From an uncultured Candidatus Saccharibacteria bacterium (GTDB lineage: Bacteria > Patescibacteriota > Minisyncoccia > Phycocordibacterales > Zambryskibacteraceae), in NCBI GenBank assembly GCA_964342515.1, contig CAYFFP010000001.1, positions 25,036-76,203 on the forward strand: 51,168 nucleotides of DNA. The letters run 5' to 3'. Of this stretch, positions 7,101 through 46,068 are shown in pieces; position 1 is the stretch's first letter; every line of letters begins with the position of its first letter. The notes beneath the pieces are model-generated. The model saw only the letters and a program-made list of their open reading frames with translations. It did no database searches and was not told where the DNA came from. The position numbers were made by a program, and so were the translations under genes.

Positions 7101-7187
7101 ACGTGAGTCGCGTGATGAGCAAAGTCCCGTGAAGTTTACTTTTTACGGGACGTAGCGAATTTTACGCGACAGCGTTAGAATGAAATT

Positions 7188-20600: not shown

Positions 20601-21472
20601 GCGAGGCCGTCGGTACTGTGGCCGCGCAGGCCATCGGCGAGCCGGGCACCCAGCTTACCATGCGCACCTTCCACGCCGGAGGCGTGGCGGCCGCCTCGGG
20701 CGACATTACCGCCGGACTGCCGCGCGTGGAGGAAATCTTCGAGAAGAGGAAACCCAAGATTCCGGCTATAGTCAGCCACTTGGACGGGGTCGTGACGGAA
20801 ATCAAAGTGGTTGGTCACGACAGAATTATCGTAGTGGCGCCTGAGGCGGGCGAGGTTAAAGGCAAAAAGTTGGATAATGAATATACAGTACCCGCCTCTC
20901 GTGCCTCGCTCATACATATCGGGCAAGGAGTAAAGAAGGGCGATATCTTGACTGACGGTTCGGCGGACCTTGACGAACTCTTCCGCTACGCCGGCAGAGA
21001 AAAGACGGAGAATTATATTATTCACGAAGTCTCCAAGCTTTACGAGCTTCAAGGCGCCGCCGTCGCCCACAAGCACATCGAGCTTATCGTCCGCCAGATG
21101 TTTAGCAGGAGAAAGATTAAAGATCCGGGTAATTCGAAGTTTACTCGCGGCGATGTCGTTGAAGTTTCGGAATTGACCGAGATTAATAACAAGTTAAAGG
21201 AAAGCGGCGGAGAGGAAGCTAAAAGCGATGTCGCCATTATGGGTATTACCGAAGTCTCGCTGTCGAGGGCGTCATTCCTATCGGCGGCTTCCTTCCAGCA
21301 TACGCCAAGAGTCTTGATCCAAGCCGCCATTAAAGGCGTCAAGGATGAGCTGGTCGGTCTTAAAGAGAATGTCATCATCGGACGGCTGATCCCTGCCGGC
21401 ACGGGCTTTAAGGGAGGATACAAGGAGAAGCTCATATGCGAGGCAATGCTCAAACAGTCAAAGAGCGGCTAG
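14654..21472 (+). CDS. rpoBC: Fused DNA-directed RNA polymerase beta-beta' subunit (single 2272-aa ORF)
   Basis: Beta motifs: GRHGNKGV, RMNLGQILE, GGQRFGEMEVWAL. A linker ...ELEKGKPDNINKN-MISNYRTAPGNK... follows. Beta' motifs: CYCGKYRGVRYKGIVCEKCGVE, NADFDGD, and the G-loop/trigger-loop region. Confidence 0.9.
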   Translation: MQKKYFGRFREPLAKMPNLVVSQVESFKWLIERGLKEVFEEFSSIKDFSEKKFQLDFVGFELAEPKIGEFQAKERKLSYEASLKVRVRLKNHIQKSEKEQEIFMADLPLMTSHGTFIISGIERVIVPQLARSTGVSFTGQEIKGKKTFGAKIIPGRGAWIEMETDFDGTIYVRIDRKRKFPVTTLLRSFGAIGNDKIHALFAPMPQAKLYIDKTLAKDHTISADEAAIEIHRRLRDGDLASAENAREFVKLIFDKERYDLSRVGRFRFNNRFGLKVKGSEIERRTLSLDDLVLIISHIVKLNTTPDALADDIDHLGSRRVRFVGELFQMNIRKGMAQIKRNIQNRMSTIDTDVTLPVQFISPKPLQARIKEFFTTNQLSQFMQQINALEELEHLRTVSALGPGGLNRARAGYEVRDVHPSHYGRLCPIQTPEGPNIGLILRQSCYARVNDFGMIETPYAVVENGKITGEIKYLNALEEESFNIAHAATEVKDDVLVPSVVEVRHKGTPTTVPSSLVNFIDVATNQAFSVATSMIPFLNHDDANRALMGSNMQKQATPCILPEVPLVATGVEETAIRDTGRVLFSPVDGKVDEVDAKLIKVRDNKDKVHEFPLVNFSMTNGFTVHHQRPSVELGAKVKKGSVLADTSSSESGQMAVGQNVLVAFMSWSGANYEDAIIISERLLEKSKFANVHIEEFEVAVRDTKLGPEMTTCDIPNVGESKLKNLAEDGIIRVGAEVRPGDILVGKITPKGESQLTPEERLLRSLFGEKARDVKDTSKRMEGGKRGRVISVQVFSREKGDKLDSGILKRIHIQVAQLRNVSVGDKLAGRHGNKGVISRILPVEDMPYMADGTPIDVLLTPLGVPSRMNLGQILEMHLGLAANALNYQAIVPPFAGASEEEIKEELVKAGIPENGKVKLYDGRTGEPFDQDIAIGCMYILKLHHMVEDKIHMRSIGPYSLITQQPLGGKAQNGGQRFGEMEVWALLGHGAGHTLREMLTIKSDDILGRSAAFDAIVKGDKIPEPNLPASFNVLLNNLRGLSLDIELEKGKPDNINKNMISNYRTAPGNKDFEAISIKLASPERIKEWSYGEVTKPETINYRTQRSERNGLFDEKIFGPDKDFECYCGKYRGVRYKGIVCEKCGVEITRSIVRRERMGHIELASPVAHIWFLKNVPSRISLIMGIPVVDLEKVVYFAGYIITSVEISEKEKVLKDLDSEFKNKIKGLQDEKSKAALKELALATKKDIEALVPGKVLNEVEYHRASLKYPTIFEAGIGAEAVYNILKDTDMHKLKEKLTAELEKAPSTEIPRINKRLSTLQWMINAGTRPEWMFLIRVPVIPPAIRPMVPLDGGRYATSDVNDLYRRVINRNNRLKKLKEINAPDVILRNEKRILQEAVDALIDNTIRHGGASGSQALRRPLKSLSDNLKGKRGLFRQNLLGKRVDYSGRSVIVVGPELKLHQCGLPKHMALELFKPFIISELLKRELAFNIPGAKRLIEDAVPEVWAILEEEISGKYVLLNRAPTLHRLGIQAFQPVLIEGNAIQLHPLVCTAFNADFDGDMMAVHVPLSEEAQAEARLIMAADKNILKPGNGEPIVSPRQDVVLGTYWMTRLKPNAKGEGKYFSSPNSAILAFDFDVVDMRAKVHVLPSETERYKQFDGKVFETTVGRLLFNSVLPKDYPYINREVGRKKMSELIDDLLEKYGIENIPAIIDKIKSFGFRYATYSGITWSLGDVKIPKGKDALIEKGRQQVTQIFNQYQEGLLSESERIVRSVEIWQGVKLEIEKIMPGALETTNPIYDIIHSEARGSFGNLNQMAGMKGIIVDVSGETLEFPITSNYKEGLTPLEYFITTHGSRKGLTDTALNTAKAGYLTRRLFDVAQDEIITEDDCGAKEGILIHKKAASGIEIPLSKNIKGRFLAADLLDNSGQVLFKKWHFITPADAALIDKSAVEAVNVRSPLGCRSTQGLCVKCYGTDLGNNKVVELGEAVGTVAAQAIGEPGTQLTMRTFHAGGVAAASGDITAGLPRVEEIFEKRKPKIPAIVSHLDGVVTEIKVVGHDRIIVVAPEAGEVKGKKLDNEYTVPASRASLIHIGQGVKKGDILTDGSADLDELFRYAGREKTENYIIHEVSKLYELQGAAVAHKHIELIVRQMFSRRKIKDPGNSKFTRGDVVEVSELTEINNKLKESGGEEAKSDVAIMGITEVSLSRASFLSAASFQHTPRVLIQAAIKGVKDELVGLKENVIIGRLIPAGTGFKGGYKEKLICEAMLKQSKSG

Positions 21473-22995: not shown

Positions 22996-24174
22996 TTGTT
23001 CGTGAAAAAAAATAAAAAACAAAAGCATAGGAAAATCAAGAAACCGGCCAAAAAGCGGGTCAAAAAGGTAAAAAAAATAAAAGCCAGACCGAAAAAGGTC
23101 GGCAAGCGCAAATTAGAACAGACGCTTAGGATGGAGCGGCTTATTGTCCGCGGCAAGGAGCGCGGCTTCGTCACTTACGACGAGATTTTGCGCGAGTTCC
23201 CGACTATCGAGAATGACATTATCTTTCTTGACGAAATGTACGAGAAACTTCACGGCTCGGGCATCGATATTCTCGAGGGCGGAGGGCTTCTGGAACTCCC
23301 GGAGATAGAGGACAAGAAGTACGCTTACTCGCGCGACAGCTCTTCTTATGACTCCATCCAAATGTACTTGCGGGAGATCGGCCAGTATCCGCTCATTGCC
23401 GGCGCCATGGAAAAGGAGCTCGCCAAGCGTATTGAGGCGGGCGATGAAGACGCCAAAAACCTCCTGATGAAGGCCAATTTGCGTCTGGTAGTTTCTATTG
23501 CCAAGAAGTATGCCAACAGAAGTCCGGACTTAACGCTGCTTGATCTAATACAGGAGGGTAATCTGGGACTGCATAAAGCGGTGGAGAAGTTTGATTGGAC
23601 AAAAGGATTCAAATTCTCGACTTATGCCACTTGGTGGATCCGTCAAGCCATTACCAGAGCGCTGGCCGACCAGTCGAGGACTATCCGCGTGCCGGTGCAT
23701 ATGGTTGAAACTATCGCCAAGTACAAACAGGTGGTCCGACGCTTGACGCAGGACTTGGGCCGCGAGCCCCTGCCGGAGGAGATTGCCATGGAGATGAACT
23801 TGGACGTTGAGAAGATTTATCAGATAGAAAAGATCGACCAAGCGACCGTTTCGCTCGAGACGCCGGTAGGGGACGCCGATGATGATAAAAGCAAGCTCGG
23901 AGACTTTCTGGCCGATGACAAAATTCTCTCTCCGGATCAAGACTCATCGCGCCGGATAATCTCGGACCAAGTGAAAGAAATCTTAAACGACCTTCCGCCG
24001 AAGGAGCGGAAGATTCTCGAAATGCGCCACGGCCTGCTTGACGGCTATACTCATACGCTCGAAGAAGTAGGCAAAGTCTTCGGCGTCACCCGCGAGCGCA
24101 TCCGCCAAATCGAAGCCAAAGCGCACGAAAAAATCCGCCAGCATGAGAAGATTGACAGATTGAGAGGGTATTAA
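22996..24174 (+). CDS. rpoD: Primary sigma factor (sigma-70/RpoD) with polybasic N-terminal tail
   Basis: Region 2 [40 protein letters not shown], region 3, and region 4 [25 protein letters not shown] or GTG start. Confidence 0.9.
24130..24174 (+). repeat. Direct repeat copy A (authentic rpoD 3' end, encodes [14 protein letters not shown])
   Basis: Aligns with 24536..24585 (AAAATCCGCCAGCAyGArAA...TTGACA...ATTGAGA...). Confidence 0.6.
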
Positions 24175-24185
24175 TTTCTCTCCAA

Positions 24186-24485
24186 TTGCGTTATCATAGA
24201 TATATGAAGAAAACTTATTCCATAAGGACAAAATATGGTCTCTTCCGAGCGTTTATTTGGCAGGATAAACGAGATAAGTTTTATCTTGTTGAGGTGCCAA
24301 GCTTCGATAAAGCCATGACCCAGGGCTACACTTTGGCAGAAGCAAAGGAAATGGCAGCTGATCTTATTAATCTCTTGTGTGAAGACGCTATGGATAACGG
24401 GAAGGTTGTGATAGATGACAATCGACGAGTGTTTGCTCGCGGCAAGTTAGCGCGTAAAACTGGGCCAGTCTTTATTACTGCATGA
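24186..24485 (+). CDS. HicB-like antitoxin, solitary (likely start ATG 24204)
   Basis: FYLVEVPSFDKAMTQGYTLAEAKEMAADLINLL matches the HicB/UPF0150 core. An 8-codon ATGA-overlapped stub (MSLLSGLR*) lies where a toxin gene would begin. Confidence 0.55.
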   Translation: MRYHRYMKKTYSIRTKYGLFRAFIWQDKRDKFYLVEVPSFDKAMTQGYTLAEAKEMAADLINLLCEDAMDNGKVVIDDNRRVFARGKLARKTGPVFITA

Positions 24486-24535
24486 GCTTGCTATCCGGTC
24501 TTCGCTAAAAGAATTTCTGAAATTATTGGGCAAAT

Positions 24536-24585
24536 AAAATCCGCCAGCACGAAAAAATAATTGACATAAATTGAGATAGTGATAA
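24536..24585 (+). repeat. Direct repeat copy B (displaced rpoD 3' end, would encode [12 protein letters not shown])
   Basis: About 75% identical to 24130..24174 with small indels. Confidence 0.6.
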
Positions 24586-24706: not shown

Positions 24707-26239
24707 ATGCCTGAATTTAAAGCAAAACCAGTAATTTCCAAGTCAGAATTCATGATGTTTTTGAAGCATCCGGCGTGGCTGTGGCTCAAGAAGCACGATA
24801 AAAATAAGCTCCCGGAACCGGACAAGACTCTGCAACTGCGCTTCGACGAGGGCGCACTCTTCGAAAGCTACGCGGAGAAAATTTTCCTTCCGCCAGCTGG
24901 CGGAGCGGTTAAACTTGGATATAAAAAAGATGGGAATGTCTTCTCCGGCACCATGTATTACGCTCTGCCCGAAACGACTCTCGGAGAAATTAAGAAGGAA
25001 ACGAAAGTAATTTTGCAAGGCCGTTTAGAAGTAGAAAATATTACATCCACTTTTGACGTTCTCGAGAGGGTGGGGGAGAAGACCTTTGACCTTTATGAAA
25101 TCAAATCGTCCACTTCCGTAAAGCCAGAGCATATACCAGACCTCGCTTTCCAAACTTTAGTTATCGAAAAATCCGGCTTTAAGGTTCGCGATGCGCATGT
25201 GCTTTATGTAAATAAAGAGTACCTGAGGAAAGGAGAGATAGATCCGTCCGGTATAAGCAAAAAAGAGGATGTGACGGAAAAGGTGCGTGAAGCTATTCCC
25301 GAAACTCTAGAGAATATCGAGAAAGCCTTTAAGGTTCTCTCTGGTCCCATGCCCAACCTGTCACCGCGACATCTGACAGGCGGTGAGATGGGTGAGTGGC
25401 TCGATATCTATCAGGTGATTAATGGCGAATTGCCCCAATATCACATTTACAAACTGGCTGGTCTTAAGCCCGATTTAGTCGAATGGCTTGAAGATAACGG
25501 CATCGAAGCGCTCCATGATGTTCCTCTGGACGAACGATTAAATGAGCGGCAAAGACGTCAGATAGAAGCCATGAAATCCGGCGAACAGAAGATTGATAAG
25601 GAAGAAATAAAAAATTTCTTAGATAAATTGGAGTATCCAATACACTTCTTCGACTATGAGACAGCCATGGGTGTTATTCCAGCCTTCGACGGATACAGGC
25701 CGTATCAACAAATTCCATTCCAATATTCTTTACATATCTTGCCGAGCCAGGGAGCGGAACTAATTCACAAAGAATATCTTCACACGGAGAATTCCGACCC
25801 GGTGCCGGAATTATTGAAGCATATTAAAGAAGATTTTGAGGGTAAAGGCTCCGTTATATCTTGGTTTATGACGTTTGAAAAAGGCAGGAACAGCGAGATG
25901 GCCAAGATGTATCCAGAATACGAAAAAATTCTAAATAATATCAATGATCGGATGGTAGATTTGATGATACCGTTTTCCAAAGGATGGTTCGTGGATAAGG
26001 ACTTCTTCGGCAGGGCTTCTATCAAAGCGGTTTTACCGGTGCTTCTGCCGGAACTAAGCTATAAGGCGCTCGAAATATCCGGCGGGGCGGACGCGCAGAG
26101 GATTTGGATGGAAACGGTGCTGAAGAATCTTAACGCGGAGAAGAAAGAAAAAATTATGGAGGATTTGCGTAAGTACTGCGCTCTTGATACGTACGCGATG
26201 TATGCAATCTATAAATATTTATCGGGAAAAGTCACTTAA
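24707..26239 (+). CDS. DUF2779-family protein (N-terminal PD-(D/E)xK-like nuclease region plus C-terminal DEDD/RNase H-like exonuclease region)
   Basis: DLYEIKSST...; FFDYETAMGVIPAFDGYRPYQQIPFQYSLHIL; WFMTFEKGRN; YCALDTYAMYAIYKYL. Confidence 0.65.
   Translation: MPEFKAKPVISKSEFMMFLKHPAWLWLKKHDKNKLPEPDKTLQLRFDEGALFESYAEKIFLPPAGGAVKLGYKKDGNVFSGTMYYALPETTLGEIKKETKVILQGRLEVENITSTFDVLERVGEKTFDLYEIKSSTSVKPEHIPDLAFQTLVIEKSGFKVRDAHVLYVNKEYLRKGEIDPSGISKKEDVTEKVREAIPETLENIEKAFKVLSGPMPNLSPRHLTGGEMGEWLDIYQVINGELPQYHIYKLAGLKPDLVEWLEDNGIEALHDVPLDERLNERQRRQIEAMKSGEQKIDKEEIKNFLDKLEYPIHFFDYETAMGVIPAFDGYRPYQQIPFQYSLHILPSQGAELIHKEYLHTENSDPVPELLKHIKEDFEGKGSVISWFMTFEKGRNSEMAKMYPEYEKILNNINDRMVDLMIPFSKGWFVDKDFFGRASIKAVLPVLLPELSYKALEISGGADAQRIWMETVLKNLNAEKKEKIMEDLRKYCALDTYAMYAIYKYLSGKVT
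24889..24904. repeat. 16-bp perfect palindrome TCCGCCAGCTGGCGGA (read as PPAGG)
   Basis: Exact self-complementary 16-mer inside the DUF2779 CDS. Confidence 0.95.
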
Positions 26240-31676: not shown

Positions 31677-31750
31677 GCTCCCGTGGTTGAATACGTTAAG
31701 AACTCTGAATTGGTCCAATATAGCACGGGAATTAGAGTTTAGCGGTTTAT
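31677..31750 (-). repeat. Pseudo-tRNA-like repeat, copy 1 (right part only)
   Basis: ~85% identical to 33809..33885. Begins at the stop codon of the amine-oxidase gene. Confidence 0.7.
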
Positions 31751-33048
31751 TAAAAATGTATTATTTGTCTTGCCACTTCTAATCCACTAGCCAGTGCTCC
31801 TTCGACAGTTGCCGTCTCTGTTTCTTTATAAAGAGCTTCACCAGCAAAGAAGATCTTATTTTCAACAGGTTCTCTCAATTTAGCGTATGCTTTCTCTGAA
31901 TTAGCCATACTATAACTATATGCACCTTTGGTAAAAGGGTCGGCTGGCCAGTTTACAACTTGATAAGTTACCACTTTTTCTTTAATAAAGTCTTTATCTG
32001 CTTTCCAGATGTCAGACAACGAAGAAAGACATAGGTTAAAAATCTCTTTCTCGGATTCGTGCTTTAATTTTTCTGCCTCTGGCCCCGCGATCCACCCTGT
32101 CAGAACTGGATATTGTTCTGGGTATTGTGTCCACCACGCATTTACTTTACCGTTGCAAAGCATAAATACCATCTTGTTAATATTTTTATGTTGACTGTTG
32201 CTTGTCCACCATTGGTCCTTAAATTTAATAAGAATTTTAATAACTTGACCGAAACCTATTTTATCAATCGCTTCAATTTTCTCATGAATAGTAGGACTGA
32301 ATTTTATATTTTTAATAATTGGTAAAGCCACGGTAACAATGACTCGTTGTCCATTATATAAATTGCCGTCTGTGCATAATACATTTATAGTATCGTTATC
32401 TATTTTTACAGATTTTACCTCCTTATTAGTTAATAGTTCTACGCTATATTTTTTACATTCTGAAACTAGGAAATTAATCATTGGCCCATATCCCTCTTTT
32501 ATCCTTCCTTGTTTCCATTCAGTTTGCCCAAGCCACTCTTCTTTAAGAGAAAAAGTGCTTATTTTATGGGGATCAGCGGCGTCAAACCCTTTCACCATAT
32601 TATTTATCACATTCACAAGCCTGCTATATTTTTCATCAGAAAAGTATTTTTCTAAGAAGGTTGAAATAGGAATGTCATCTACCAGCTCATTTAATCTTTC
32701 GTTTATTATTTCTCTATATTTTATAAATTCAGGGTCTTCAGTAAATAAATAAGCCTTCTTCAATTCGTTACCATCGAAAGACCACATTTCTCCGTCTTCA
32801 GGCATGGAAACATAATTCAAACCAGCTTCACGAAGTAATGACTTGGTTAATGGTGCCTCTCCGTGAATGAATTCTGCTCCACCTTGCGCCGGATAACCAA
32901 ACTCTTCTTCGTCAAGAGGGAAAATTCTTCCTCCCACCCTATCTATGGCTTCAAGAATTATTACTTTTTTCCCGGCTTTAGCTAGTTCTCTTGCCACCAT
33001 TAAACCTGTTGCCCCAGCACCTATAACTATAATTTCTGCTTTTTCCAT
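31750..33048 (-). CDS. Flavin-containing amine oxidase / NAD(P)/FAD-dependent oxidoreductase
   Basis: IIVIGAGATGLMVARELAKAGKKVIILEAIDRVGGRI dinucleotide-binding motif; C-terminal FFAGEA...ATVEGAL. Confidence 0.8.
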   Translation of the reverse strand: MEKAEIIVIGAGATGLMVARELAKAGKKVIILEAIDRVGGRIFPLDEEEFGYPAQGGAEFIHGEAPLTKSLLREAGLNYVSMPEDGEMWSFDGNELKKAYLFTEDPEFIKYREIINERLNELVDDIPISTFLEKYFSDEKYSRLVNVINNMVKGFDAADPHKISTFSLKEEWLGQTEWKQGRIKEGYGPMINFLVSECKKYSVELLTNKEVKSVKIDNDTINVLCTDGNLYNGQRVIVTVALPIIKNIKFSPTIHEKIEAIDKIGFGQVIKILIKFKDQWWTSNSQHKNINKMVFMLCNGKVNAWWTQYPEQYPVLTGWIAGPEAEKLKHESEKEIFNLCLSSLSDIWKADKDFIKEKVVTYQVVNWPADPFTKGAYSYSMANSEKAYAKLREPVENKIFFAGEALYKETETATVEGALASGLEVARQIIHF

Positions 33049-33081
33049 AAACTTCAGCTAAATAATCATCAATTATTAGTT

Positions 33082-33636
33082 CTACAATTTATCTACTTGA
33101 AACGGTATTAAATCTGACTCTGCAAATAGCCTTGATTTTGAGGATTTTATTAATCCGATAGAAGGGTTGGTTGCGAAACCTATGTATTCTACCTGTTTAT
33201 TTTTACCATTTCGCACATATTGAATTGCTGGTATCAAATCGGTATCAGAACTCACTATAATGGCTGTATCGTATAAATTATCCACAGCACCGATAACCAG
33301 ATCTACAGATAATTTAACATCCACACCCTTTTCCCTAATTCTTTTTCCGTCATACATAATACGTCCACGTTTTATAACAAATCCTTCGTTTTCTAAACCA
33401 CTTAGAAATTTTTGCTGGCTTTTGACCATTTCCTCACTCTTCTTAGAGTTATCGTGATTTTTTACAATACCAACATAGTATCTCTTTGATATAAGCTCTC
33501 TTTCTCCAACTAGATGACTAACGAAAGCGGAGTAATCAAATCTCTTATCTTGTTTAGGTATACCCAACTCCTTAAGTTTTCTATAAGTATTGCCTCCATC
33601 TATATAAACTACGACTTTTTCTTTGCCGAATAACAT
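33082..33636 (-). CDS. NYN/LabA-like PIN-fold RNase domain protein
   Basis: VVVYIDGGN..., GVDVKLSVDLV, AIIVSSDTDLIPAIQYV. Confidence 0.8.
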   Translation of the reverse strand: MLFGKEKVVVYIDGGNTYRKLKELGIPKQDKRFDYSAFVSHLVGERELISKRYYVGIVKNHDNSKKSEEMVKSQQKFLSGLENEGFVIKRGRIMYDGKRIREKGVDVKLSVDLVIGAVDNLYDTAIIVSSDTDLIPAIQYVRNGKNKQVEYIGFATNPSIGLIKSSKSRLFAESDLIPFQVDKL

Positions 33637-33660
33637 AACTAGACTTTAACATAAAACAAA

Positions 33661-33688
33661 CCACCTCTGCCCGTGAAGGCAGAGGTGG
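33661..33688 (-). terminator. Intrinsic terminator (minus strand) after the EEP operon and repeat copy 2
   Basis: CCACCTCTGCC-n6-GGCAGAGGTGG, followed on the minus strand by TTTGTTTTAT. Confidence 0.6.
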
Positions 33689-33722
33689 TGCTGTTAGTGC
33701 TTATTAATATACATGTTTCAAA

Positions 33723-33885
33723 TTAAAAATCAATGAAATATGTTAATAAGTTCTGAACCCTATTTTTGGTTATAAAAATTAGCGGCTTAACGAAGCCATA
33801 TTTTCAGGGCTCCCGTGGTTGGATACGTTAAGAACTCTGAATTGGAAAAATATAGCACGGGAGCTTGAGTTTAGTGGGTTAATAA
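33723..33885 (-). repeat. Composite repeat copy 2: pseudo-tRNA part (33809-33885) plus tRNA-Asn downstream-flank part (33723-33808)
   Basis: The left part aligns with 35532..35618 and the right part with 31677..31750. Begins at the EEP stop codon. Confidence 0.75.
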
Positions 33886-33887
33886 AT

Positions 33888-34628
33888 TTAATTAAAATCT
33901 AAGTACATGGCTAAATGGTCAGAAACTTCATCTGGTAATACCTGGAAATCATTAACCTTTATATCTTTACTGACTAGAGTATAGTCAGCAAAACGAACTG
34001 ATTTTGTGTAGTGGCTAGACCTCGTTGAGGTAATACCAAATTCTTTAATAAGATTTCTCATACCTAAATCTTCCAACATTTTCAAACTCTTAGTTTCTGG
34101 AAGTAGGTTGAAGTCGCCCATAAGCACATGGTGGTGTGAAATTCCTTTTAAGAACTTGGCAATCCTGTCTGATTGAATTAACCTCTCTTCGGTATCTTCT
34201 TTAGGACCACCGTTCCACAAACCATGAAAATTTAGAATTGTCCTAGGGCCTTTGGGTGTCTCTATGGTTGTATATTGAAGATTTCTGGCATGATTAGCAT
34301 GAAATTCTTGATGCACCCAGCCTACATCTTTATGAACAAAAATGTCTCCCTCTTCAAGAGCATTGAGGTCTTTCTTAACAAACATAGCTAGACCATACCA
34401 ATCGTGATAATGTGGGCGAAAGAATATTGAATGCTCCGTTAATATATTCCCGATATTAGTAAGCATTCTTGTATCTATCCCTTCTCCCCATTTAGGGGCT
34501 TCATCATCTCCACCTTCCCAGATTTCTTGAAGGCAGAAAACATCAATATCCTTGTGCTTACGAAAAAAATCCAAGAGATTATCCTTTCCAGCTCTTCCGC
34601 CCCAAGTATTTAGCGAAATCAGCCTCAT
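33888..34628 (-). CDS. Endonuclease/exonuclease/phosphatase (EEP) family protein
   Basis: LISLNTWGG, FCLQEI, GDFN, SDHLAMYLDF. Confidence 0.8.
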   Translation of the reverse strand: MRLISLNTWGGRAGKDNLLDFFRKHKDIDVFCLQEIWEGGDDEAPKWGEGIDTRMLTNIGNILTEHSIFFRPHYHDWYGLAMFVKKDLNALEEGDIFVHKDVGWVHQEFHANHARNLQYTTIETPKGPRTILNFHGLWNGGPKEDTEERLIQSDRIAKFLKGISHHHVLMGDFNLLPETKSLKMLEDLGMRNLIKEFGITSTRSSHYTKSVRFADYTLVSKDIKVNDFQVLPDEVSDHLAMYLDFN

Positions 34629-34900
34629 TATTTCAGTGAGATTACCTGCAACCCTTTCTTATCTATATCTTCTTTAGGCCAGAATTTAGTTAAATCATCT
34701 ATCTTCCACTTTCCTACATATCCAACCTTTCTTTCTAATTCTCTTCCTGTGTAGGCCTTTGTGTATGGATTCCACTCTTTCAAAACTAAGGTGTCTCCTT
34801 CGTCTATGTCAAAATCATTCAGTCTTAACTCAAAAGTCTTTTTGCCATCTAGAATTTCTTGAAAGTATTCAGACCATACTTTCTTTTCAACTGTTTTCAT
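34628..34900 (-). CDS. ASCH/DUF3850-like small RNA-binding-fold protein
   Basis: YFQEILDGKKTFELRLNDFDIDEGDTLVLKEW...YTGRELERKVGYV. Confidence 0.65.
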   Translation of the reverse strand: MKTVEKKVWSEYFQEILDGKKTFELRLNDFDIDEGDTLVLKEWNPYTKAYTGRELERKVGYVGKWKIDDLTKFWPKEDIDKKGLQVISLK

Positions 34901-34942
34901 ATGGGAAGTATAACAAAAATGGTGTAAGATATCTCCATTATT

Positions 34943-35419
34943 ATGGGCTTTTTATCTAGATATAAACGCGAAAAGCAAAAAGCGGAAGATTTCTATAAAA
35001 CTATAGATAAGGTTAAATGTCCTTATTTTGAGACCGATATCACTTTTAATGCTGATGGATTTCATCACCTCCAGTTTTCTGCGGAACGCGAACGGCCAAA
35101 GCAAGAGCAACTTCTGAAATTCAGTCTTTTACCCGCAATTCCACATATCTTAAAGAAAGCCGGGACAATTCAAGAGTATAGACGCACAATGGAACCAGTG
35201 GGTCAAAAGAGATTTTCTGATGGCGCTAAAGAAATGAAAGAAATTGAATATTGGGGAATAGTTGCTATCACAAAAAGTGAAAAACCGATAAGAATCAAGA
35301 TTATTTTGCGTAGAGTTGGTAACGGAAGTATAATTTTTTGGAGTGTAATGCCAACAGTGAAATTGAAAGATGGTGACTCGTATTTATATTTAGCTACTCC
35401 AAATATTGCTGAAGAATAA
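34943..35419 (+). CDS. Hypothetical 158-aa protein
   Basis: ORF with plausible composition (FNADGFHHLQF...IIFWSVMP); family not recognised. Confidence 0.45.
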   Translation: MGFLSRYKREKQKAEDFYKTIDKVKCPYFETDITFNADGFHHLQFSAERERPKQEQLLKFSLLPAIPHILKKAGTIQEYRRTMEPVGQKRFSDGAKEMKEIEYWGIVAITKSEKPIRIKIILRRVGNGSIIFWSVMPTVKLKDGDSYLYLATPNIAEE

Positions 35420-35531
35420 CGACAAAGCCCCTGATAAACAGGGGCTCTCTCGAGTGTCTGCCTTCAGCTTAATTTATTAGCTGAACGGGGCTTGCGCCCA
35501 CAGACACACTTTGACTATACCTAATCGTAAG

Positions 35532-35618
35532 TTAAAAATCAATGAAAATATGTTAATAAGTTCCGAACTCTATTTAGGTTGCAAAGTTTAGTGGCTCAAC
35601 AAAGCCATATTTTCGGGG
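35532..35618 (-). repeat. Repeat copy 3: authentic downstream flank of tRNA-Asn
   Basis: ~85% identical to 33723..33808 and contiguous with the tRNA-Asn 3' end. Confidence 0.75.
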
Positions 35619-35691
35619 CTCCGCGAGCAGGGATCGAACCTGCGACATCCTCGTTAACAGCGAGGCGCTCTGCCGACTGAGCTATCGCGGA
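35619..35691 (-). tRNA. tRNA-Asn (anticodon GTT)
   Basis: Acceptor TCCGCGA/TCGCGGA, D arm GCTC-AGTCGGCA-GAGC, anticodon arm CCTCG-CTGTTAA-CGAGG, T arm GCAGG-TTCGATC-CCTGC. Confidence 0.9.
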
Positions 35692-35747
35692 ATATTGGGA
35701 AATGATACCAAAAAGAGGGGATTAGACAAATTTGTTATAATAAGTTT

Positions 35748-36298: not shown

Positions 36299-37463
36299 CT
36301 CTGGTAGGTACAAATTTCCCATCTTCGATTTTGGCATCATTTACTGCGATTCTTAGTTCTTTACCCATTTTATTTTTGAAAAAGAAATAAGCGCCGGGCC
36401 ATCTACTGTAAGCGAGGACCTTTCTTAAATTCTTTTCCGCATCATCATTCAAATCAAGAAGCCCATCCTCCTTCTTCACCAATTTGCAATAAGTAGCTAA
36501 TGAGTCGTCTTGAGGAGTAGGTGTCGGCAAATTCGGGAGGATTTTTGCCAGAAGTCTGCCACCGGCGCGGGCCAATTTCTCTTCCACTTTCGCGTAATGG
36601 TCCGGCCATGGCTCTATAAAAACCTTTTCTTGCGCCAGTATTGGTCCGTGGTCCATTTTCTCGTCCATTTTTATGATAGTGACACCGGGCTGCTTGTTCT
36701 CTAGGATTAAATTTTGAATAGGGGAAGAGCCCCGCAACTCAGGCAACAACGACGGATGCGCGTTAAGAAATCCGCGTCTTGGAATTTCTAAATATTCTTT
36801 AGGCAAGATTTTCCCGAACGACGCGACTATGCCGAAATCAATATCTTTTGGAAATTTGGGGAGGGGTGCTTTCGCGTCGGTAACTTTCAGAACGGGAGAA
36901 AACCCGGCACTTTCCAACTCTTCCAGTACAAATTCCGAGAATTTAGAACCTTGCCTGCCGGCAGGCAGGCTACCGAAGAAGACGAACGAAGCGGCTGGGG
37001 GGAGATTCCTCACATTCTTCGCTTTATCGGTAAAGAGTATGCCGTTTAAGTGGTCTATCTCGTGCTGTATTATCTGGGCAAGGAGGCCGGAGGCGCCAAT
37101 GGTAACCGACTTACCGGCATCGTTATAAGCTTTTATCGTCACTTTCTCATGGCGGAGCACTTCTCCGTAAAGCCATCTTACGGACAGACAGCCCTCCTCC
37201 ATCTTCCTCTTCTTCTTGGAAGTTTTGACGATTTCCGGATTGATGAAGACTAGGTCAGCACTTTCTCTCTTTACCATAAAAATCCGGAGGCTAGCGCCGA
37301 TTTGCGGCGCGGCAATAGCCACCCCGTCCTTTTCGGCATGTAAAGCCCTCTTCATCTTAGCGACAATGTCTCTTATTTTTTTAGAACCAATATCTTCGAG
37401 AGGCACTGCCTCGGCAGTTTGCCTCAAAACTGGACTCTCTTTGTCTACTAATAGTTTCTTCAT
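36243..37463 (-). CDS. def-fmt: Fusion of peptide deformylase (N-terminal) and a shortened methionyl-tRNA formyltransferase (C-terminal)
   Basis: Def motifs GVAIAAPQIG, EGCLSV, QHEIDHLNG. Then the Fmt part: VFFGS..SKFSEFVLEEL, NAHPSLLPELRGSSPIQ, GVTIIKMDEKMDHGPIL. ATGA overlap with the priA stop. Confidence 0.8.
   Translation of the reverse strand: MKKLLVDKESPVLRQTAEAVPLEDIGSKKIRDIVAKMKRALHAEKDGVAIAAPQIGASLRIFMVKRESADLVFINPEIVKTSKKKRKMEEGCLSVRWLYGEVLRHEKVTIKAYNDAGKSVTIGASGLLAQIIQHEIDHLNGILFTDKAKNVRNLPPAASFVFFGSLPAGRQGSKFSEFVLEELESAGFSPVLKVTDAKAPLPKFPKDIDFGIVASFGKILPKEYLEIPRRGFLNAHPSLLPELRGSSPIQNLILENKQPGVTIIKMDEKMDHGPILAQEKVFIEPWPDHYAKVEEKLARAGGRLLAKILPNLPTPTPQDDSLATYCKLVKKEDGLLDLNDDAEKNLRKVLAYSRWPGAYFFFKNKMGKELRIAVNDAKIEDGKFVPTRVTPAGKREMNWRDFLRGN
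36952..36967. repeat. 16-bp perfect palindrome TGCCTGCCGGCAGGCA (read as LPAGRQ in the Fmt N-terminal motif)
   Basis: Exact self-complementary 16-mer inside the FFGS[LPAGRQG]SKF segment. Confidence 0.9.
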
Positions 37464-40243: not shown

Positions 40244-42229
40244 ATGGGAGTTTTTAAGATTAACAACGGATTCAAGCCGGCAGGGGACCAACCCCGAGCA
40301 ATCTCGGGGTTGGTCAAAGGTATTAGGGATGGGCTTCGTCACCAAACTCTTCTCGGTGTCACCGGCTCGGGCAAGACATTTACCGTGGCGAATGTCATAG
40401 CAGAGACAGACAAACCCACTCTCGTCATCGCTCACAACAAAACCTTGGCCGCCCAGCTGGCGCAGGAATACCGCGAATTTTTCCCCGAAAATGCGGTGCA
40501 CTACTTCGTCTCTTATTACGACTACTACCAGCCCGAAGCGTATCTTCCTGTCACCGATACTTATATCGAGAAAGAAGCGATGATCAACGAAGAGATAGAG
40601 CGCCTGCGCCACGCTTCCACCCAAGCGCTCTTGACTCGCAAAGATGTGATTATCGTAGCTTCAGTATCTTGTATCTATGGTTTAGGCGATCCGGCCGAAT
40701 ACGAGAAGGTAAATTTAAAAATAAAAGTCGGAGAGAATGTCTCGCGAGCAGATTTCATCCGAAATCTAATTGATATCCACTATTCCCGCACTAATGCGGA
40801 TTTAAAGCCGGGAACATTTCGCGCACTGGGTAATGTCATTGAGATTATGCCAATCTCGGAGAGAATTATTTACCGAATTGAATTAGATGGAGGGAAAGTT
40901 TTTTCTATCAAGCGCATTGACGCGGTATCGCGCTCGATAATAAATGAAGTAGATGTTTTCTTCCTCTTCCCGGCAAAGCACTTCATAACTGCCGATGATG
41001 CGAACAAGAGGGCTCTCGAGAGCATCAGATCGGAATTGGAAGACCGGTTGGAAGAATTAAAGGAAGGAGGGAAAATTCTTGAAGCTGAACGACTCAAACG
41101 CAGGACCACATACGACCTAGCCATGATCCGCGAAGTTGGTTACACCAACGGCATTGAGAATTACTCAAGACACTTCACGGGTAAAAAAGCCGGTGAAGCG
41201 CCATTTACGCTCCTTGATTATTTCCCCAGTCCGCCAGCCGGCGGATTTCTAACCATTATCGATGAATCTCATGTCACCGTGCCGCAGATAGGAGGAATGT
41301 ACGCGGGCGATAAAAGCCGCAAGGATACTCTTGTTGAACACGGCTTCAGACTGCCTTCCGCGCGCGACAACAGGCCGCTTAAGTTCGAAGAGTTCGAAAA
41401 GAAAATTGGGCAAGTTATCTATACTTCTGCCACGCCGGCGGAATACGAAAGGGAAGTGAGCGGTAAGATAGTAGAACAAGTCATCAGGCCGACGGGATTA
41501 ATTGACCCAGAGGTAATAGTAAAACCCATCGAATCTCAAATCTTGGATTTTATAAAAGAAGCAGAGAAGGCAATAGCAAAAGGCGGGCGAGTGATGGCCA
41601 CCACTCTTACTAAGAAAATGGCCGAAGACCTCTCCGAATTTTTAAAGGAGAAGAAGATTCGCGCGGAATATTTGCATAGTGATATTAAGACTATCGAGCG
41701 CATTGAGATCTTGACCCGGCTTCGCAAAGGTGAATTTGATTGCATTGTTGGAGTCAATCTCTTGAGAGAAGGTCTAGACTTGCCGGAGGTAACTCTTATT
41801 GGGATTCTTGATGCAGATAAAGAAGGATTCTTAAGGTCAGAGACTTCTCTTATACAGATCATCGGCCGCGCCGCGAGAAATATAGATGGCAGAGTCATTC
41901 TCTATGCCGACACTATGACTGGCTCTATGAAAAAAGCGATCGAAGAGACGGAGCGCAGGAGGAAACTCCAGAGTGCATATAACAAAAAGCATGGTATTAC
42001 TCCCAAGACGATTGTCAAAAAGATTAAAGATATCACCGACACTCTGGAACGCGAACATCATCAGGCGGTCAATCTTTTACTGGAAACTGACGAGAAGTTA
42101 TTCAAAAAATCTCCCAAGAAAGTTATTAAAATGAAGATGAAAGAGATGGAAGAAGCGGTCAAGAATTTGGATTTTGAAACCGCCGCCATCCTCCGCGATG
42201 AGATCAAAGCACTAGAAGCACGTCTGTGA
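40244..42229 (+). CDS. uvrB: Excinuclease ABC subunit B
   Basis: GVTGSGKT, DESHVTVPQIGGMY, RLPSARDNRPLKFEEF, and a C-terminal UVR motif (DFETAAILRDEIKALE). Confidence 0.95.
   Translation: MGVFKINNGFKPAGDQPRAISGLVKGIRDGLRHQTLLGVTGSGKTFTVANVIAETDKPTLVIAHNKTLAAQLAQEYREFFPENAVHYFVSYYDYYQPEAYLPVTDTYIEKEAMINEEIERLRHASTQALLTRKDVIIVASVSCIYGLGDPAEYEKVNLKIKVGENVSRADFIRNLIDIHYSRTNADLKPGTFRALGNVIEIMPISERIIYRIELDGGKVFSIKRIDAVSRSIINEVDVFFLFPAKHFITADDANKRALESIRSELEDRLEELKEGGKILEAERLKRRTTYDLAMIREVGYTNGIENYSRHFTGKKAGEAPFTLLDYFPSPPAGGFLTIIDESHVTVPQIGGMYAGDKSRKDTLVEHGFRLPSARDNRPLKFEEFEKKIGQVIYTSATPAEYEREVSGKIVEQVIRPTGLIDPEVIVKPIESQILDFIKEAEKAIAKGGRVMATTLTKKMAEDLSEFLKEKKIRAEYLHSDIKTIERIEILTRLRKGEFDCIVGVNLLREGLDLPEVTLIGILDADKEGFLRSETSLIQIIGRAARNIDGRVILYADTMTGSMKKAIEETERRRKLQSAYNKKHGITPKTIVKKIKDITDTLEREHHQAVNLLLETDEKLFKKSPKKVIKMKMKEMEEAVKNLDFETAAILRDEIKALEARL
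41230..41245. repeat. Palindrome variant TCCGCCAGCCGGCGGA (one central mismatch; read as PPAGG)
   Basis: Inside uvrB at DYFPSPPAGGFLTIIDESH. Confidence 0.9.
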
Positions 42230-42283
42230 TACTATATCCCCGTTGACATACCCCTGTAGCCCAGGCGCAGGGCGCCTTTCTAT

Positions 42284-44809
42284 ATGAATAAAAAAGATGA
42301 TTTGATTATCGTCAAAGGCGCGAGAACACACAACCTTAAGAATATTACGGTTGAGATGCCGCGCAATAAAATAATCGCTATTACCGGCCTCTCCGGTTCG
42401 GGCAAATCCTCTTTGGCCTTCGACACTATCTTCGCCGAGGGTCAGCGCAGATACATTGAGTCGCTCTCTTCTTACGCGCGTCAATTCCTGCGCCAGATGC
42501 AGAAGCCGGATGTCGACGAGATTATCGGACTTTCTCCCGCTATCTCTATAGACCAGAAGTCTCGCTCCAATAATCCTCGCTCAACAGTCGCTACTATTAC
42601 CGAGATCTACGATTATTTGAGAATTTTATACGCTCGCATCGGCCGGCCGCATTGTCTTGTCTGCGGCCATGAGATCAAAAAACTCTCGAATGAAGAAATA
42701 AAAAATTTTATTTTGGAAAAAGCATCAATGTCAAAGGCGGCCTTTGACATATTGTCACCCGTTGTGCGCGGGAGAAAAGGTGAGTATTACCAGCTTCTCT
42801 ACGATCTTCTAGGTAAGGGATATAGCGAGGTAATGGTAGATGGTAAAAAGTATTCTCTCCGCGAACGCATTAACCTTACCAAGACCAAGAAACATGAGAT
42901 ATCGGTATTGGTCGATTCGATCAATCTTGCCGAAGATGACGCGGAAGAAAGACTCTCCGAAGCCATCGAAAGAGCCTTACACGAATCAGACGGCCTGCTT
43001 ATTTTGAAAACTAATCCGCCAGCTGGCGGAGAAGAACATTTGATGTCCGCCAAATGGGCCTGCCCGAGAGACGGCTTCTCTTTCCCCGAAATAGAACCGC
43101 GGCTCTTCTCGTTTAACTCGCCGTACGGGGCATGTCCGGAGTGTAACGGCTTGGGCACCAAGTATCTCTTCGGCTCCGAGCCGTGCGAAAGGTGCCATGG
43201 CAAGAGATTAAGGGAAGAAGCGTTAAATGTCCTTATAGGAGGGAAGAATATTGTTGATTTGACGGCTCTTTCCATCAAAGACGCGGACGAATTCTTCAAA
43301 AAACTCAAACTTACTCAAAGAGAAAAAAGTATTTCAAAAGTAGTGACAAGAGAGATTGAAGCACGACTCGCTTTTATGCTCAATGTCGGCATCGAGTACC
43401 TCTCGCTTGATCGCAGAGCGCACACGCTCTCCGGCGGGGAGGCGCAGCGCATTAGATTGGCTAGCCAGCTTGGATCGGGACTTGTCGGAGCGCTTTATGT
43501 GCTCGATGAGCCAACTATAGGACTGCACGCTCATGATAATGACCGGCTCATCAAAACGCTTCTCAACCTGCGCGACCTAGGCAATACCATTCTCATTGTT
43601 GAGCACGATGAGGAGACCATTTACTCCTCTGACTATCTGGTAGACATCGGTCCGGGCGCGGGTGTGCATGGGGGAGAGGTGGTTATTGCCGGTGACTTAG
43701 ACGAATTGCTTACCGCGCCGAAAAATAAAAATAATTCCTTAACTCTAGCGTATTTGCGCGGCGAGAAGAAGATTGAAGTGCCGGAAGAGAGGCGCGAAGC
43801 GGAGAGAGGAGAGATAAGGATCCGCGGAGGGAAAGTGTTTAATATTAAGCACTTAAATGTCGATGTTCCTCTGCGTCGGCTTATTGCTGTCACTGGAGTA
43901 TCCGGCTCCGGCAAGTCATCTTTCGTCTACGAAATTTTGCACAAGAATCTGCAGGCGCGGCTGGACCGTCGCTACCGGAGCGCGGAGACTCACAACTGCC
44001 AATCATTCGAAGGGACGGAATACTTAGGCAGAACGATACTTATCGACCAGTCTCCCATTGGTCGTACTCCGCGTTCTAACCCCGCCACTTACACCGGTGC
44101 TTTCACTTTCATCCGTGAGTTATTTGCCGAGACGGCGGAGGCGCGGGCCAGAGGTTGGAAGCCGAACAGGTTCTCCTTCAATGTCAAAGGCGGCCGGTGC
44201 GAAACCTGCCAAGGCAACGGCATGATCGAGGTGGAGATGCATTTCCTGCCGACCGTTTACGTGCCGTGTGACGTCTGCGGGGGCAAAAGGTTTATGAAAG
44301 AGACTTTGGAAGTGAAGTATAAGCACAAAAATATTTTTCAGGTGCTTGAGATGACGACAGAAGAAGCACTGGAATTCTTTGAGGATATCCCGGCGATTTA
44401 TGACCGGCTCAAGACCATGAATGATGTGGGTCTTGGCTACTTGGCGCTTGGCCAGTCCGCCACGACGCTCTCCGGCGGGGAAGCGCAGAGAGTAAAGATT
44501 GCTTCGGAACTCTATCGCCCGCATTTGGAGAAAACGATTTATCTACTAGATGAGCCGACAATAGGACTTCATTACGAAGATGTGAAAAAATTGATTGAGA
44601 TTCTCCAAAAACTCGTCGATAAAGGCAATACGGCAATGGTCATCGAACATAATATGGATTTCATCAAATCCTGTGATTACATCCTCGACATCGGTCCCGA
44701 TGGCGGAGATGGTGGAGGCGAACTGGTGGCTAAAGGCACTCCGGAAGAAGTAGCGGGCACAGATACGCATACGGGGAAGTATTTAAGAAAAACTCTCAGA
44801 AAGAAATGA
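42284..44809 (+). CDS. uvrA: Excinuclease ABC subunit A (841 aa, apparently lacking the insertion domain)
   Basis: Two ABC modules ([18 protein letters not shown]; LSGGEAQR twice) and Zn modules. Only 9 residues separate CPECNGLG from CERCHGKRL. Confidence 0.95.
43015..43030. repeat. 16-bp perfect palindrome TCCGCCAGCTGGCGGA (read as PPAGG)
   Basis: Inside uvrA at [11 protein letters not shown]. The 21-nt context is identical to the uvrC copy. Confidence 0.95.
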
Positions 44810-46068
44810 AAATAAATCATTTGCCGGATGGGCCGGGAGTTTACTTTTTCCTTAAATCCACCTCACCCAGCCCTCTCCTAGGCAAGGAGAGGGCAAAAGA
44901 AAAAGACCCCCTTCTCCTTACGTCTAGGAGAAGGGGTGGGGATGAGGTGCTGTATATCGGCAAAGCCACATCTCTCTGCGATAGGGTAAAAAGTTATTTC
45001 TCGAAAGATATATTTCTCTCGCGCGGACCGAGGATTGTAAAGATGCTTGAGGAGGCGGATAGAGTTGATTTTGTTCAGACTGATTCGGTGCTGGAGGCGC
45101 TGATTCTTGAGGCCAATGAAATCAAGAAGCATCAGCCGATTTATAACGCGAAAGAAAAAGATGATAAAAGTTATCTTTATGTCGCTATTACTAAGGAGAA
45201 GTTTCCTAAAGTAATTGTCACGCGTGGTTCAGGAGACTATGGACCCTTCCCACACAGCGGGGAACTGAAAGAAGCTTTAAAGATTGTCAGAAAGATTTTT
45301 CCCTTCCGCGATGATAAATGCAAATTAATTAACAAGCCCTGTTTCAATGCCCAAATCGGTCTCTGTCCCGGGCCGTGCGCGGGCTGGATTTCTAAGGCCG
45401 ATTACAGGAAACAAATCAGGAATATAAAATTATTTTTCGAAGGCAAGAAAGATACTCTTATAAAAACTCTTGAGAAAGAGATGAAAGTCTTTGCGAAAAC
45501 GCAGGAATTTGAGAGGGCTGGTGAAATAAAGAAGAAAATTTTTGCCCTCGATCATATTCAAGATATTGCTTTGATTAAAAAAGATTTAGAGGGAAGTTCT
45601 CAAGAAGGTTTTCGTATAGAAGCTTATGACATTGCTCATATCTCCGGCACCAATGTTGTCGGGGTAGTGACTGTCGTCGAAGATGGAGAGCTGAACAAAA
45701 GCCAATACAGGAAATTCAAAATAAGAGCGGATAATCCGCCAGCTGGCGGAGACGATACCAAGAACCTCAAGGAGATTATTTCCAGACGCTTAGGTCATCC
45801 GGAGTGGAAGTTCCCGAATCTTATTGTCGTCGATGGCGGCAAAGGGCAGATTAATGCCGCGAGAAAGGTTTTAGAAGAATCCGGACTAGAAATGATAGAT
45901 GTGGTCTCTGTGGTCAAGGATGAAAGACATAGGCCCAGAGAGATTCTAGGCACTGTGCAAATGCAAAGTCCGACTTTGCACAAATCTATTCTTCTGGCTA
46001 ACTCAGAAGCCCATCGCTTCGCTATCGGTTATCACAGACGACTGCGCGGCAAAGGATTTAGGATATAA
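44806..46068 (+). CDS. uvrC: Excinuclease ABC subunit C, minimised (420 aa; no C-terminal (HhH)2 region)
   Basis: GIY-YIG (GPGVYFF ... VLYIGKATSLCDRVKSYF), UVR motif (EFERAGEIKKKIFAL), RNase H-like domain (IEAYDIAHISGTN ... HRFAIGYHRRLR). ATGA overlap with uvrA. Confidence 0.9.
   Translation: MKINHLPDGPGVYFFLKSTSPSPLLGKERAKEKDPLLLTSRRRGGDEVLYIGKATSLCDRVKSYFSKDIFLSRGPRIVKMLEEADRVDFVQTDSVLEALILEANEIKKHQPIYNAKEKDDKSYLYVAITKEKFPKVIVTRGSGDYGPFPHSGELKEALKIVRKIFPFRDDKCKLINKPCFNAQIGLCPGPCAGWISKADYRKQIRNIKLFFEGKKDTLIKTLEKEMKVFAKTQEFERAGEIKKKIFALDHIQDIALIKKDLEGSSQEGFRIEAYDIAHISGTNVVGVVTVVEDGELNKSQYRKFKIRADNPPAGGDDTKNLKEIISRRLGHPEWKFPNLIVVDGGKGQINAARKVLEESGLEMIDVVSVVKDERHRPREILGTVQMQSPTLHKSILLANSEAHRFAIGYHRRLRGKGFRI
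44859..44949. repeat. ~91-nt in-frame palindromic element (outer stem plus two hairpins) inside the uvrC GIY-YIG domain
   Basis: Hairpin 1: GCCCTCTCCT-AGGCA-AGGAGAGGGC (44870-44894). Hairpin 2: CCCCTTCTCCT-TACGTCT-AGGAGAAGGGG (44908-44936). Outer stem: CACCTCACCC / GGGgaTGAGGTG. Confidence 0.85.
45735..45750. repeat. 16-bp perfect palindrome TCCGCCAGCTGGCGGA (read as PPAGG)
   Basis: Inside uvrC at RADNPPAGGDDTK. Confidence 0.95.

Follow-up and report, generated by a model that had tools for sequence, protein, structure and literature searches.

The window examined here, a 51,168-nucleotide (nt) stretch of DNA from an uncultured Candidatus Saccharibacteria bacterium, carries a 16-nt perfect palindrome, TCCGCCAGCTGGCGGA, in three exact copies and one single-mismatch form, TCCGCCAGCCGGCGGA, each of them inside a gene. 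The best protein matches carry the names Candidatus Zambryskibacteria, Parcubacteria or Patescibacteria and thus place the organism in the candidate phyla radiation. The word is probably a very small non-autonomous DNA repeat, similar to repetitive extragenic palindromes (REPs) and Rickettsia palindromic elements (RPEs), which survives only where it is harmless. It is a secondary insertion, is dispersed over genomes and phyla, favours one reading frame, keeps its stem and lies in loops, features that match a selfish hairpin repeat without coding capacity on which selection has acted as a filter. The copies and their host genes are the following.

24889..24904, unstranded: perfect copy of the 16-mer, read as L-PPAGG-A in the DUF2779/Cas4-like gene
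41230..41245, unstranded: loop-variant copy TCCGCCAGCCGGCGGA, read as S-PPAGG-F in uvrB and predicted to fold as the same hairpin
43015..43030, unstranded: perfect copy of the 16-mer, read as N-PPAGG-EE in uvrA
45735..45750, unstranded: perfect copy of the 16-mer, read as N-PPAGG-DD in uvrC
24707..26239, plus strand: host gene of a DUF2779 / Cas4-like nuclease (Pfam PF11074 and PF01930)
40244..42229, plus strand: host gene uvrB (Pfam; PDB match with E = 1.8e-249)
42284..44809, plus strand: host gene uvrA, 841 amino acids (Pfam; PDB alignment in two blocks)
44806..46068, plus strand: host gene uvrC, short form of 420 amino acids (Pfam; PDB match)

The preliminary description of this DNA had reported the three perfect copies and the one-mismatch copy in a single reading frame, and all of this stands. 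In each of the four genes the first T of the word is codon position 3, giving xxT CCG CCA GCN GGC GGA and hence the peptide Pro-Pro-Ala-Gly-Gly (PPAGG). The mismatch in uvrB alters one central base and leaves the stem intact. The mean chance expectation is 0.01 matches and none of 100 dinucleotide-preserving shuffles gives the four observed; the family of TCCGCCAGCTGGCGGA also ranks top in copy number among the repeated 12-mers of the window. The 21-nt context TAATCCGCCAGCTGGCGGAGA is identical between the uvrA and uvrC copies, as had been noted. No further match with up to two mismatches occurs within the window. A word with three mismatches at 27188, in an RNase H-like exonuclease gene, was not counted, being most likely native coding (LDQLAE) or chance. 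The same copies are present in three other public assemblies (L001-L003) of the same or related samples and are therefore not an assembly artefact; the word is found in isolate genomes too, for instance in Mucilaginibacter flavidus. The feature is real and non-random.

Orthologous genes of relatives provide empty counterparts to the occupied sites. In uvrC, 118 of 120 close relatives (61-75% identity) read KIRADK-N-DDTKNL without insert where the window reads ADN-PPAGG-DD, and the same 16-mer is found at this site only in P0028/L059 among the 120. In uvrA the word is absent from all of ~85 syntenic uvrBAC loci drawn from metagenomes and genomes; the nearest relatives read LKTKE-EEYLMS and LKFKD-EEHLMS, and the net change in the window is +12 nt. 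The DUF2779 site is empty in 117 of 119 relatives, the closest of which (83-75% identity) have AEKIF-PD-AVKLGY as compared to AEKIF-LPPAGG-AVKLGY in the window. The uvrB copy differs: relatives carry a loop of eight residues, FP-KKADGSPD-FL, where the window has the six residues SPPAGG, the 16-mer standing in place of 22 nt of native loop for a net change of -6 nt. The KKADGSPD loop of close UvrB relatives is absent from solved UvrB structures. The earlier proposal that the copies are loop insertions thus holds for uvrA, uvrC and DUF2779, whose relatives are all or nearly all empty, and needs amending for uvrB, where an 8-residue loop was replaced by one of 6. As judged from these alignments, the window copies are secondary DNA-level insertions and not old protein motifs, because relatives show presence and absence at orthologous sites.

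The window events can be written as a 16-nt unit that replaces 1 to 22 target bases without duplicating the target site; the net length changes observed are +12, +15 and -6 nt. At the uvrC junction GAT AA[G AAT] GAC becomes GAT AA[16-mer] GAC, and in uvrA AA[G GAA] GAA becomes AA[16-mer] GAA. A 15-nt insertion with a separate codon loss may account for the same junctions. The DUF2779 and CarB junctions have diverged flanks and their exact reconstruction is ambiguous. In CarB, L258 and L242 each have the element at a different site, and each site is empty in the other genome. For uvrC (L059) and DUF2779 (L264) a more distant lineage has the same 16-mer at the same site as the window while nearer relatives are empty; L059 and L264 come from one sequencing project. 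These shared sites reflect either repeated targeting of the same positions or old insertions followed by precise losses. Recent recombination between the window lineage and that of L059/L264 was considered and discarded, the flanking codons being no more alike than elsewhere when compared by eye.

The 16-mer folds into a 6-bp GC stem, TCCGCC/GGCGGA, closed by a 4-nt loop, and is predicted to be stable, with -5.9 kcal/mol as DNA and -10.2 kcal/mol as RNA. Almost all changes found in variants near perfect copies and in relatives fall in the four central bases (AACT, GGCT, AGCC, AGTC, CCCT, TGCT), and one variant, TCCGTCAGCTGACGGA, is compensated by a change in both arms. Because variants alter the centre and keep the stem, the conserved unit is, at the level of sequence comparison, a 6-bp-stem hairpin and not a CAGCTG site. 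This bears on two further accounts, that the word is a restriction-modification or methyltransferase site CAGCTG, similar to the iterated palindrome HIP1, or that PPAGG is an ancestral protein motif. The core of the 16-mer is indeed CAGCTG, and trmD of the window encodes at 13024 a native PPYGG with palindromic codons, CCGCCATATGGCGG; the central bases are, however, the least conserved part of the word, and CAGCTG is not enriched in the window, where three of its 8 sites belong to the element. PPAGG is missing from nearly all of the 120 UvrC, ~85 UvrA, ~45 UvrB and 119 DUF2779 relatives, while identical codons recur in unrelated proteins. Both accounts are already contradicted by the data and retain a negligible probability. 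The orthologue alignments that had been suggested as a check instead give PPAGG as a DNA-level addition in variable loops, and the proposal of a CAGCTG recognition site falls with the variability of the four central bases and the kept or compensated stem.

With its 14 nt, the trmD sequence CCGCCATATGGCGG (13024-13037) forms a perfect palindrome whose arms are those of the element. It was rejected as a further copy: it codes for PPYGG, which we take to be a native, conserved TrmD motif, and is not an insertion. Pro and Gly codons are reverse complements of each other, and PPxGG is therefore naturally prone to palindromy. Two other sequences previously thought to be related do not belong to the family. 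The hairpin at 8981-9009, found downstream of a tRNA-Thr gene, has a different stem (CCCGCC/GGCGGG) and a loop of 3 nt, and the half-site AATCCGCCAGC of rpoD is native coding for K-I-R-Q that is found also in the relative L264, its copy at 24538 originating from the duplication of the rpoD 3' end.

A scan of GTDB with one genome per species retrieved at least 120 loci with the 16-mer. With taxa taken from record titles, the matches listed comprise ~41 loci from Patescibacteria of many classes, ~33 from Bacteroidota and a few from Cloacimonadota or Elusimicrobiota. Most of the listed matches are in genomes of 29-50% GC, while the word itself has 75% GC; only ~20 are in high-GC genomes, where chance matches are expected and the word is ordinary coding for ..RQLAE... 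Low-GC public genomes hold at least 130 distinct copies. Low-GC matches listed within open reading frames (ORFs) of at least 120 codons are read 36 times as PPAGG, 9 times as RQLAE and 7 times as SASWR (binomial p = 1.3e-7 against equal use). For the listed loci labelled Patescibacteria, ORFs of at least 150 codons contain 25 of the 46 copies, and the copies within long genes use the PPAGG frame in 22 cases out of 25, RQLAE in 1 and SASWR in 2. No frame is preferred among the Bacteroidota matches listed, whose copies mostly (17 of 21) fall outside long ORFs. Some Bacteroidota copies are found inside repeats of 130-400 nt or in inverted doublets such as that of Mucilaginibacter L114, whose arms (7024-7052 and 7135-7163) are 82 nt apart; these doublets resemble REP doublets forming hairpins (REPINs). 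The window and Patescibacteria copies are all singletons, with no inverted doublet among them.

Structural RNAs and hairpins host the element as well. In the Cyclobacteriaceae locus L132 (4274-4680) RNase P RNA has exactly the 16-mer as its P3 and again as its P12 hairpin, and in Hanamia (Bacteroidota; L129, around 2824) the 16-mer is P12 of that RNA. At L104, L143, L097 and L125 a run of T follows a long locus-specific stem that has the element as its apex. Three Patescibacteria loci have duplicated 5' fragments of tRNA genes (tRNA-Asn or tRNA-Lys) in which the 16-mer takes the place of 3 or 8 internal nt:

L121, 2181-2540: locus with tRNA-gene fragment
L103, 1-110: locus with tRNA-gene fragment
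L116, 3988-4043: locus with tRNA-gene fragment

At L121 and L116 the fragment stands beside an intact tRNA gene. The tRNA-Asn fragments, in a Wolfebacteria and a Kaiserbacteria genome, adjoin a small GIY-YIG ORF; a tblastn search with a GIY-YIG ORF gave 3 matches and no general association with the copies.

A selected function of the word, as a sequence for DNA uptake, as a binding site for a protein or as a hairpin that regulates the host genes at the mRNA level, would agree with the conservation of the stem, once by compensation, and with the copies found at the apex of terminator-like hairpins. Patescibacteria are moreover thought to depend on DNA uptake. The distribution of the word makes this very improbable. 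Its density, 4 copies per 51 kb in the window as compared to 6 per 767 kb (~1 per 128 kb) in relatives, is very uneven between close relatives and 10-100 times below that of known uptake signals; the same word recurs in several phyla, its copies have come into loops of unrelated genes by insertion, and their position relative to gene ends is inconsistent. Compensated changes also result from arm-to-arm templating without any selection. The idea of an uptake-like word, put forward when the copies were first described, is thus not sustained, given the low density, the presence in several phyla and the origin by insertion rather than substitution.

The restriction of the hosts to repair and nuclease genes, claimed at the same time, is true of the window and not of other genomes, where the hosts are varied housekeeping genes. 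Reading the sequences by eye suggested CysS, MetK, RecJ, glutamate dehydrogenase, TsaD, PNPase, methionine aminopeptidase (Map) and CarB, in addition to the DnaK tail and the RpoD N-terminus (twice each). The clustering in uvrB, uvrA and uvrC might still not be accidental if hairpin repeats preferentially hit, or stay in, nucleotide-excision-repair genes and modulate repair, the mutator effect that Di Nocera et al. had in mind. An 11% portion of the window holds three of the four copies (post hoc p ~0.005). The uvrBAC operon has 7 perfect palindromes, or 1.2 per kb, as compared to 0.26 per kb in the rest of the window and a mean of 0.24 per kb in the uvr genes of 85 relatives, and REPs occur in uvrA/B/C of several unrelated species (PMC3733652). 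These clustering statistics are post hoc and come from one window, however, and in relatives hairpins are no denser in the uvr genes than elsewhere in the same loci. Only ~3 of 36 coding hosts of the 16-mer are repair- or replication-related when assigned by eye, the word occurring elsewhere in all kinds of housekeeping genes. A role in modulating repair is improbable also in view of the proteins, in which the UvrC catalytic columns and the helicase and ATPase motifs are intact, and of the uvr sites, where indels are frequent in general. That the copies of this genome cluster in the uvr genes is nevertheless real, whatever the cause.

The uvrA, uvrB and uvrC sites vary in length across relatives in general. 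In the AlphaFold model of UvrC, PPAGG (residues 311-315) forms part of a coil between a strand and a helix; the predicted local distance difference test score (pLDDT) is below 50 in this coil and 86-93 for the domain to which strand and helix belong. The GIY-YIG catalytic columns of UvrC are invariant in alignment A1, and UvrA and UvrB give long, high-identity matches to solved structures, which suggests that the three proteins may still work. UvrA of the window lacks ~118 residues found in solved UvrA structures; short UvrA (~845 residues) occurs in the relatives checked, as does short UvrC (365-459 residues) in relatives.

The uvrB loop that holds PPAGG in the window has insertions of 15-30 residues in L232, L235 and L244, and the uvrC loop likewise in L235. 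They share peptide words such as ..GQTQTI.. and ..NADKTQI.. and look like translated copies of other repeat families.

If the word is a REP/RPE-like repeat, new copies would be written into the chromosome as a 16-nt unit, usually at the expense of a few target bases. In the gene-dense genomes of Patescibacteria most landing sites would be genes, and a copy would be retained only where the net length keeps the frame, where the PPAGG frame supplies a flexible peptide and where the site is an indel-tolerant surface loop. The counterpart in RNA would be tolerance at the tips of existing hairpins, namely RNase P P3/P12, terminator-like stems and tRNA-gene fragments. The copies' flanks have only a weak preference for T/G.

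As for the copying step, the tentative proposal is that a single-strand HUH/Y1 transposase of the RAYT (REP-associated tyrosine transposase)/IS200 type recognises the hairpin and mobilises it in trans. RAYT-like Y1 transposase genes are present in this clade, in L264, L255 and L126, and each has a short GC-rich palindrome of its own at either side; the gene of L264 sits between rpoD and DUF2779 and its palindrome is GCGTAGGCAATGCCTACGC. Several results speak against the 16-mer as a repeat mobilised in this way. It flanks none of the three RAYT-like genes found by tblastn with RAYT over all loci, and the same search found no RAYT-like gene in the window. When the ORFs located up to 2.5 kb from 130 copies were clustered all against all, no gene family proved to be enriched. 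The REP tags GTAG and CGTC accompany 6 and 5 of the 130 distinct copies, respectively, as compared to ~4 by chance, and are not enriched. The loss of 1 to 22 target bases at the junctions is atypical of Y1 'peel-and-paste' transposition. REP-RAYT systems are described in the literature as mostly inherited vertically, and for them it would be unusual that several phyla have one identical 16-mer.

The main rival to mobilisation by a transposase requires no dedicated enzyme. Template switching during replication or repair would spread the word and keep it perfect: a nascent strand stalled at a hairpin or break would copy a short patch of another copy through 2-3 nt of microhomology, arm-to-arm templating would keep palindromes perfect, and the 16-mer would be the most successful of many such coding palindromes. 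Palindromes of other sequence in the uvr genes are relevant to this proposal.

40286..40315, unstranded: hairpin of different sequence with a 13-bp perfect stem, GACCAACCCCGAG-CAAT-CTCGGGGTTGGTC, in the uvrB motif GDQPRAISGLV
42728..42750, unstranded: palindrome of different sequence with an 11-bp stem in uvrA, +2 residues relative to nearest relatives
44870..44936, unstranded: two GC-rich hairpins of other families, with 10- and 11-bp stems, in a ~29-residue insertion of the uvrC GIY-YIG loop

In the window and relatives, perfect palindromes occur in uvr coding sequences at 0.13-0.32 per kb as compared to ~0.03 by chance. The uvrB hairpin at 40286-40315 involves no length change, and relatives pair only 3-7 of its 13 positions; it was therefore perfected by substitutions (Q/K to R, KE to SG) within a conserved motif, which is the signature of quasi-palindrome template switching. 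At the uvrA 42728 site at least six relatives (L187, L188, L255, L258, L261, L263) have other perfect palindromes that are different and mutually compensated, L187 and L188 being distinguished by one compensated pair of changes. The variable loss of target bases, the microhomologies AA and GA shared at the junctions and the failure to find a linked enzyme, either among ORFs within 2.5 kb of the copies or in the RAYT search, point in the same direction. Local template switching, however, yields locus-specific palindromes and not one 16-mer in unrelated genes and phyla, and genome-wide ectopic templating from 2-3 nt of homology would be very inefficient. It also leaves unexplained the REPIN-like doublets and the longer repeat units with the word in Bacteroidota. 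As the means by which the 16-mer spreads, template switching is thus unlikely.

It is doubtful that this bare 16-nt hairpin, untagged and with no flanking repeats, constitutes a class of mobile DNA of its own, perhaps the smallest on record. It would move within genomes and between phyla (Patescibacteria, Bacteroidota and others), replace a few bases (typically 4), hit the same sites again and rely on a mechanism unlike that of classical REP/RAYT. The outcome would be a proteome-wide scatter of PPAGG pentapeptides together with hairpin-tip replacements in structural RNAs.

The two uvrC hairpins at 44870-44936 (CCCTCTCCT..AGGAGAGGG type) encode residues 22-44, of which 22-41 are modelled as coil with pLDDT below 50. 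Other insertions are found at this GIY-YIG loop in P0003, P0007, P0023 and P0025, and related hairpins in uvrC of L185 and uvrB of L193. The def-fmt fusion gene has at 36952-36967 a second 16-nt GC-rich perfect palindrome, TGCCTGCCGGCAGGCA, which is extended to 22 nt inside uvrC of the relative L191; the two occurrences suggest further families of the same kind.

The window has additional features. Within 24130-24560 a 93-residue ORF, which gives a weak HicB-like match, stands between two copies of the last ~23 nt of rpoD (AAAATCCGCCAGCAYGARAARAT). This ORF is inserted between rpoD and the DUF2779 gene, where L264 has its RAYT-like Y1 transposase, and the intergenic spot appears to be an insertion hot spot. 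A single ORF of 2272 residues at 14654-21472 encodes a fused beta-beta' subunit of RNA polymerase, in which the complete set of RpoB domains precedes the complete set of RpoC domains. Three related segments within 31677-35692 adjoin tRNA-Asn (35616-35692), pairing 31677-31754 with 33809-33886 (87% identical) and 33736-33813 with 35546-35622. This region of low GC (0.35-0.40) encodes an amine oxidase, an NYN-domain protein and a protein of the endonuclease/exonuclease/phosphatase family, and looks like tandem integrations at the tRNA gene. By 2-kb block, the GC content of the window ranges from 0.34 to 0.55.

How REPs are copied is still unsettled and their transposition has rarely been caught. 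A 16-base repeat with clear empty and filled sites, recurring sites and hosts among both proteins and RNAs is a simple substrate for finding the writing enzyme. Part of the lineage-specific 'insertions' in Patescibacteria proteins would be selfish DNA translated by the ribosome, which matters for annotation, alignments, phylogenies and structure prediction in this group. The uvr copies are also an independent instance of the association, published but unexplained, of palindromic repeats with uvrABC genes.

In-frame REPs in uvrA, uvrB, uvrC and other genes of replication and repair were described by Di Nocera, De Gregorio and Rocco (2013, PMC3733652), who speculated on mutator effects. Their presence inside uvrA/B/C is thus already published, while the element reported here is outside the described families. 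No paper was found that contains CCGCCAGCTGGCGG, nor any on palindromic in-frame insertions in Patescibacteria. Like the intragenic GTAG/CGTC REPs (PMC3733652), the 16-mer is a short GC-rich multi-copy stem-loop, found in some cases in frame in uvrA/B/C, thought to sit in flexible loops and arranged as inverted doublets in some genomes. It differs by its length of 16 nt, its 6-bp stem and its perfect palindromy, REPs measuring 20-40 nt, and departs from the REP superfamilies in having no GTAG/CGTC tag, an identical word across phyla and no cognate RAYT found. REPs are predominantly extragenic and downstream of genes, whereas all four window copies are intragenic and those of Patescibacteria mainly so; the Bacteroidota copies, mostly outside long ORFs, are REP-like in this respect.

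With REPIN-RAYT systems (Bertels & Rainey 2011; Nunvar 2010) the 16-mer shares the nature of a non-coding hairpin repeat, and the doublets of L114 and the palindrome-flanked RAYT-like Y1 transposases of this clade may be further common ground, while the RAYTs here are flanked by other palindromes and the 16-mers stand singly in genes and are common to phyla. REPINs are described in the literature as extragenic, lineage-specific and mostly inherited vertically. Two reports on mitochondria (PMC8811140, PMC6649704) deal with mobile GC clusters in yeast and with palindromes in coding sequences of Nematomorpha, which are likewise GC-rich palindromic mini-elements of an AT-richer genome in which in-frame placement is possible; these are organellar, 30-280 bp long and of unrelated sequence, in contrast to a bacterial element of 16 nt.

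DNA-uptake sequences (DUS) of Neisseria and uptake signal sequences (USS) of Pasteurellaceae are also short over-represented words, found in genes and in preferred frames. They are not self-complementary, occur about once per kb, are lineage-specific and arise by point substitution, whereas the 16-mer is rare, crosses phyla and is inserted. DUS have been reported to be enriched in genome-maintenance genes.

RPEs are in-frame palindromic repeats in genes of the reduced Rickettsia genomes (PMC3733652), and the miniature, coding-tolerant palindromic element modelled on them in the preliminary description is the proposal that the evidence fits. As with RPEs, a palindrome lies in frame in many unrelated, apparently functional genes of a reduced genome, which is seen here for uvrC, uvrA, DUF2779 and CarB. 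RPEs are ~100-150 bp long, encode 30-50 residues, are confined to Rickettsia and have one orientation, while the present element has 16 nt and 5 residues, is self-complementary and extends over several phyla: it is not an RPE, although it is RPE-like in its behaviour.

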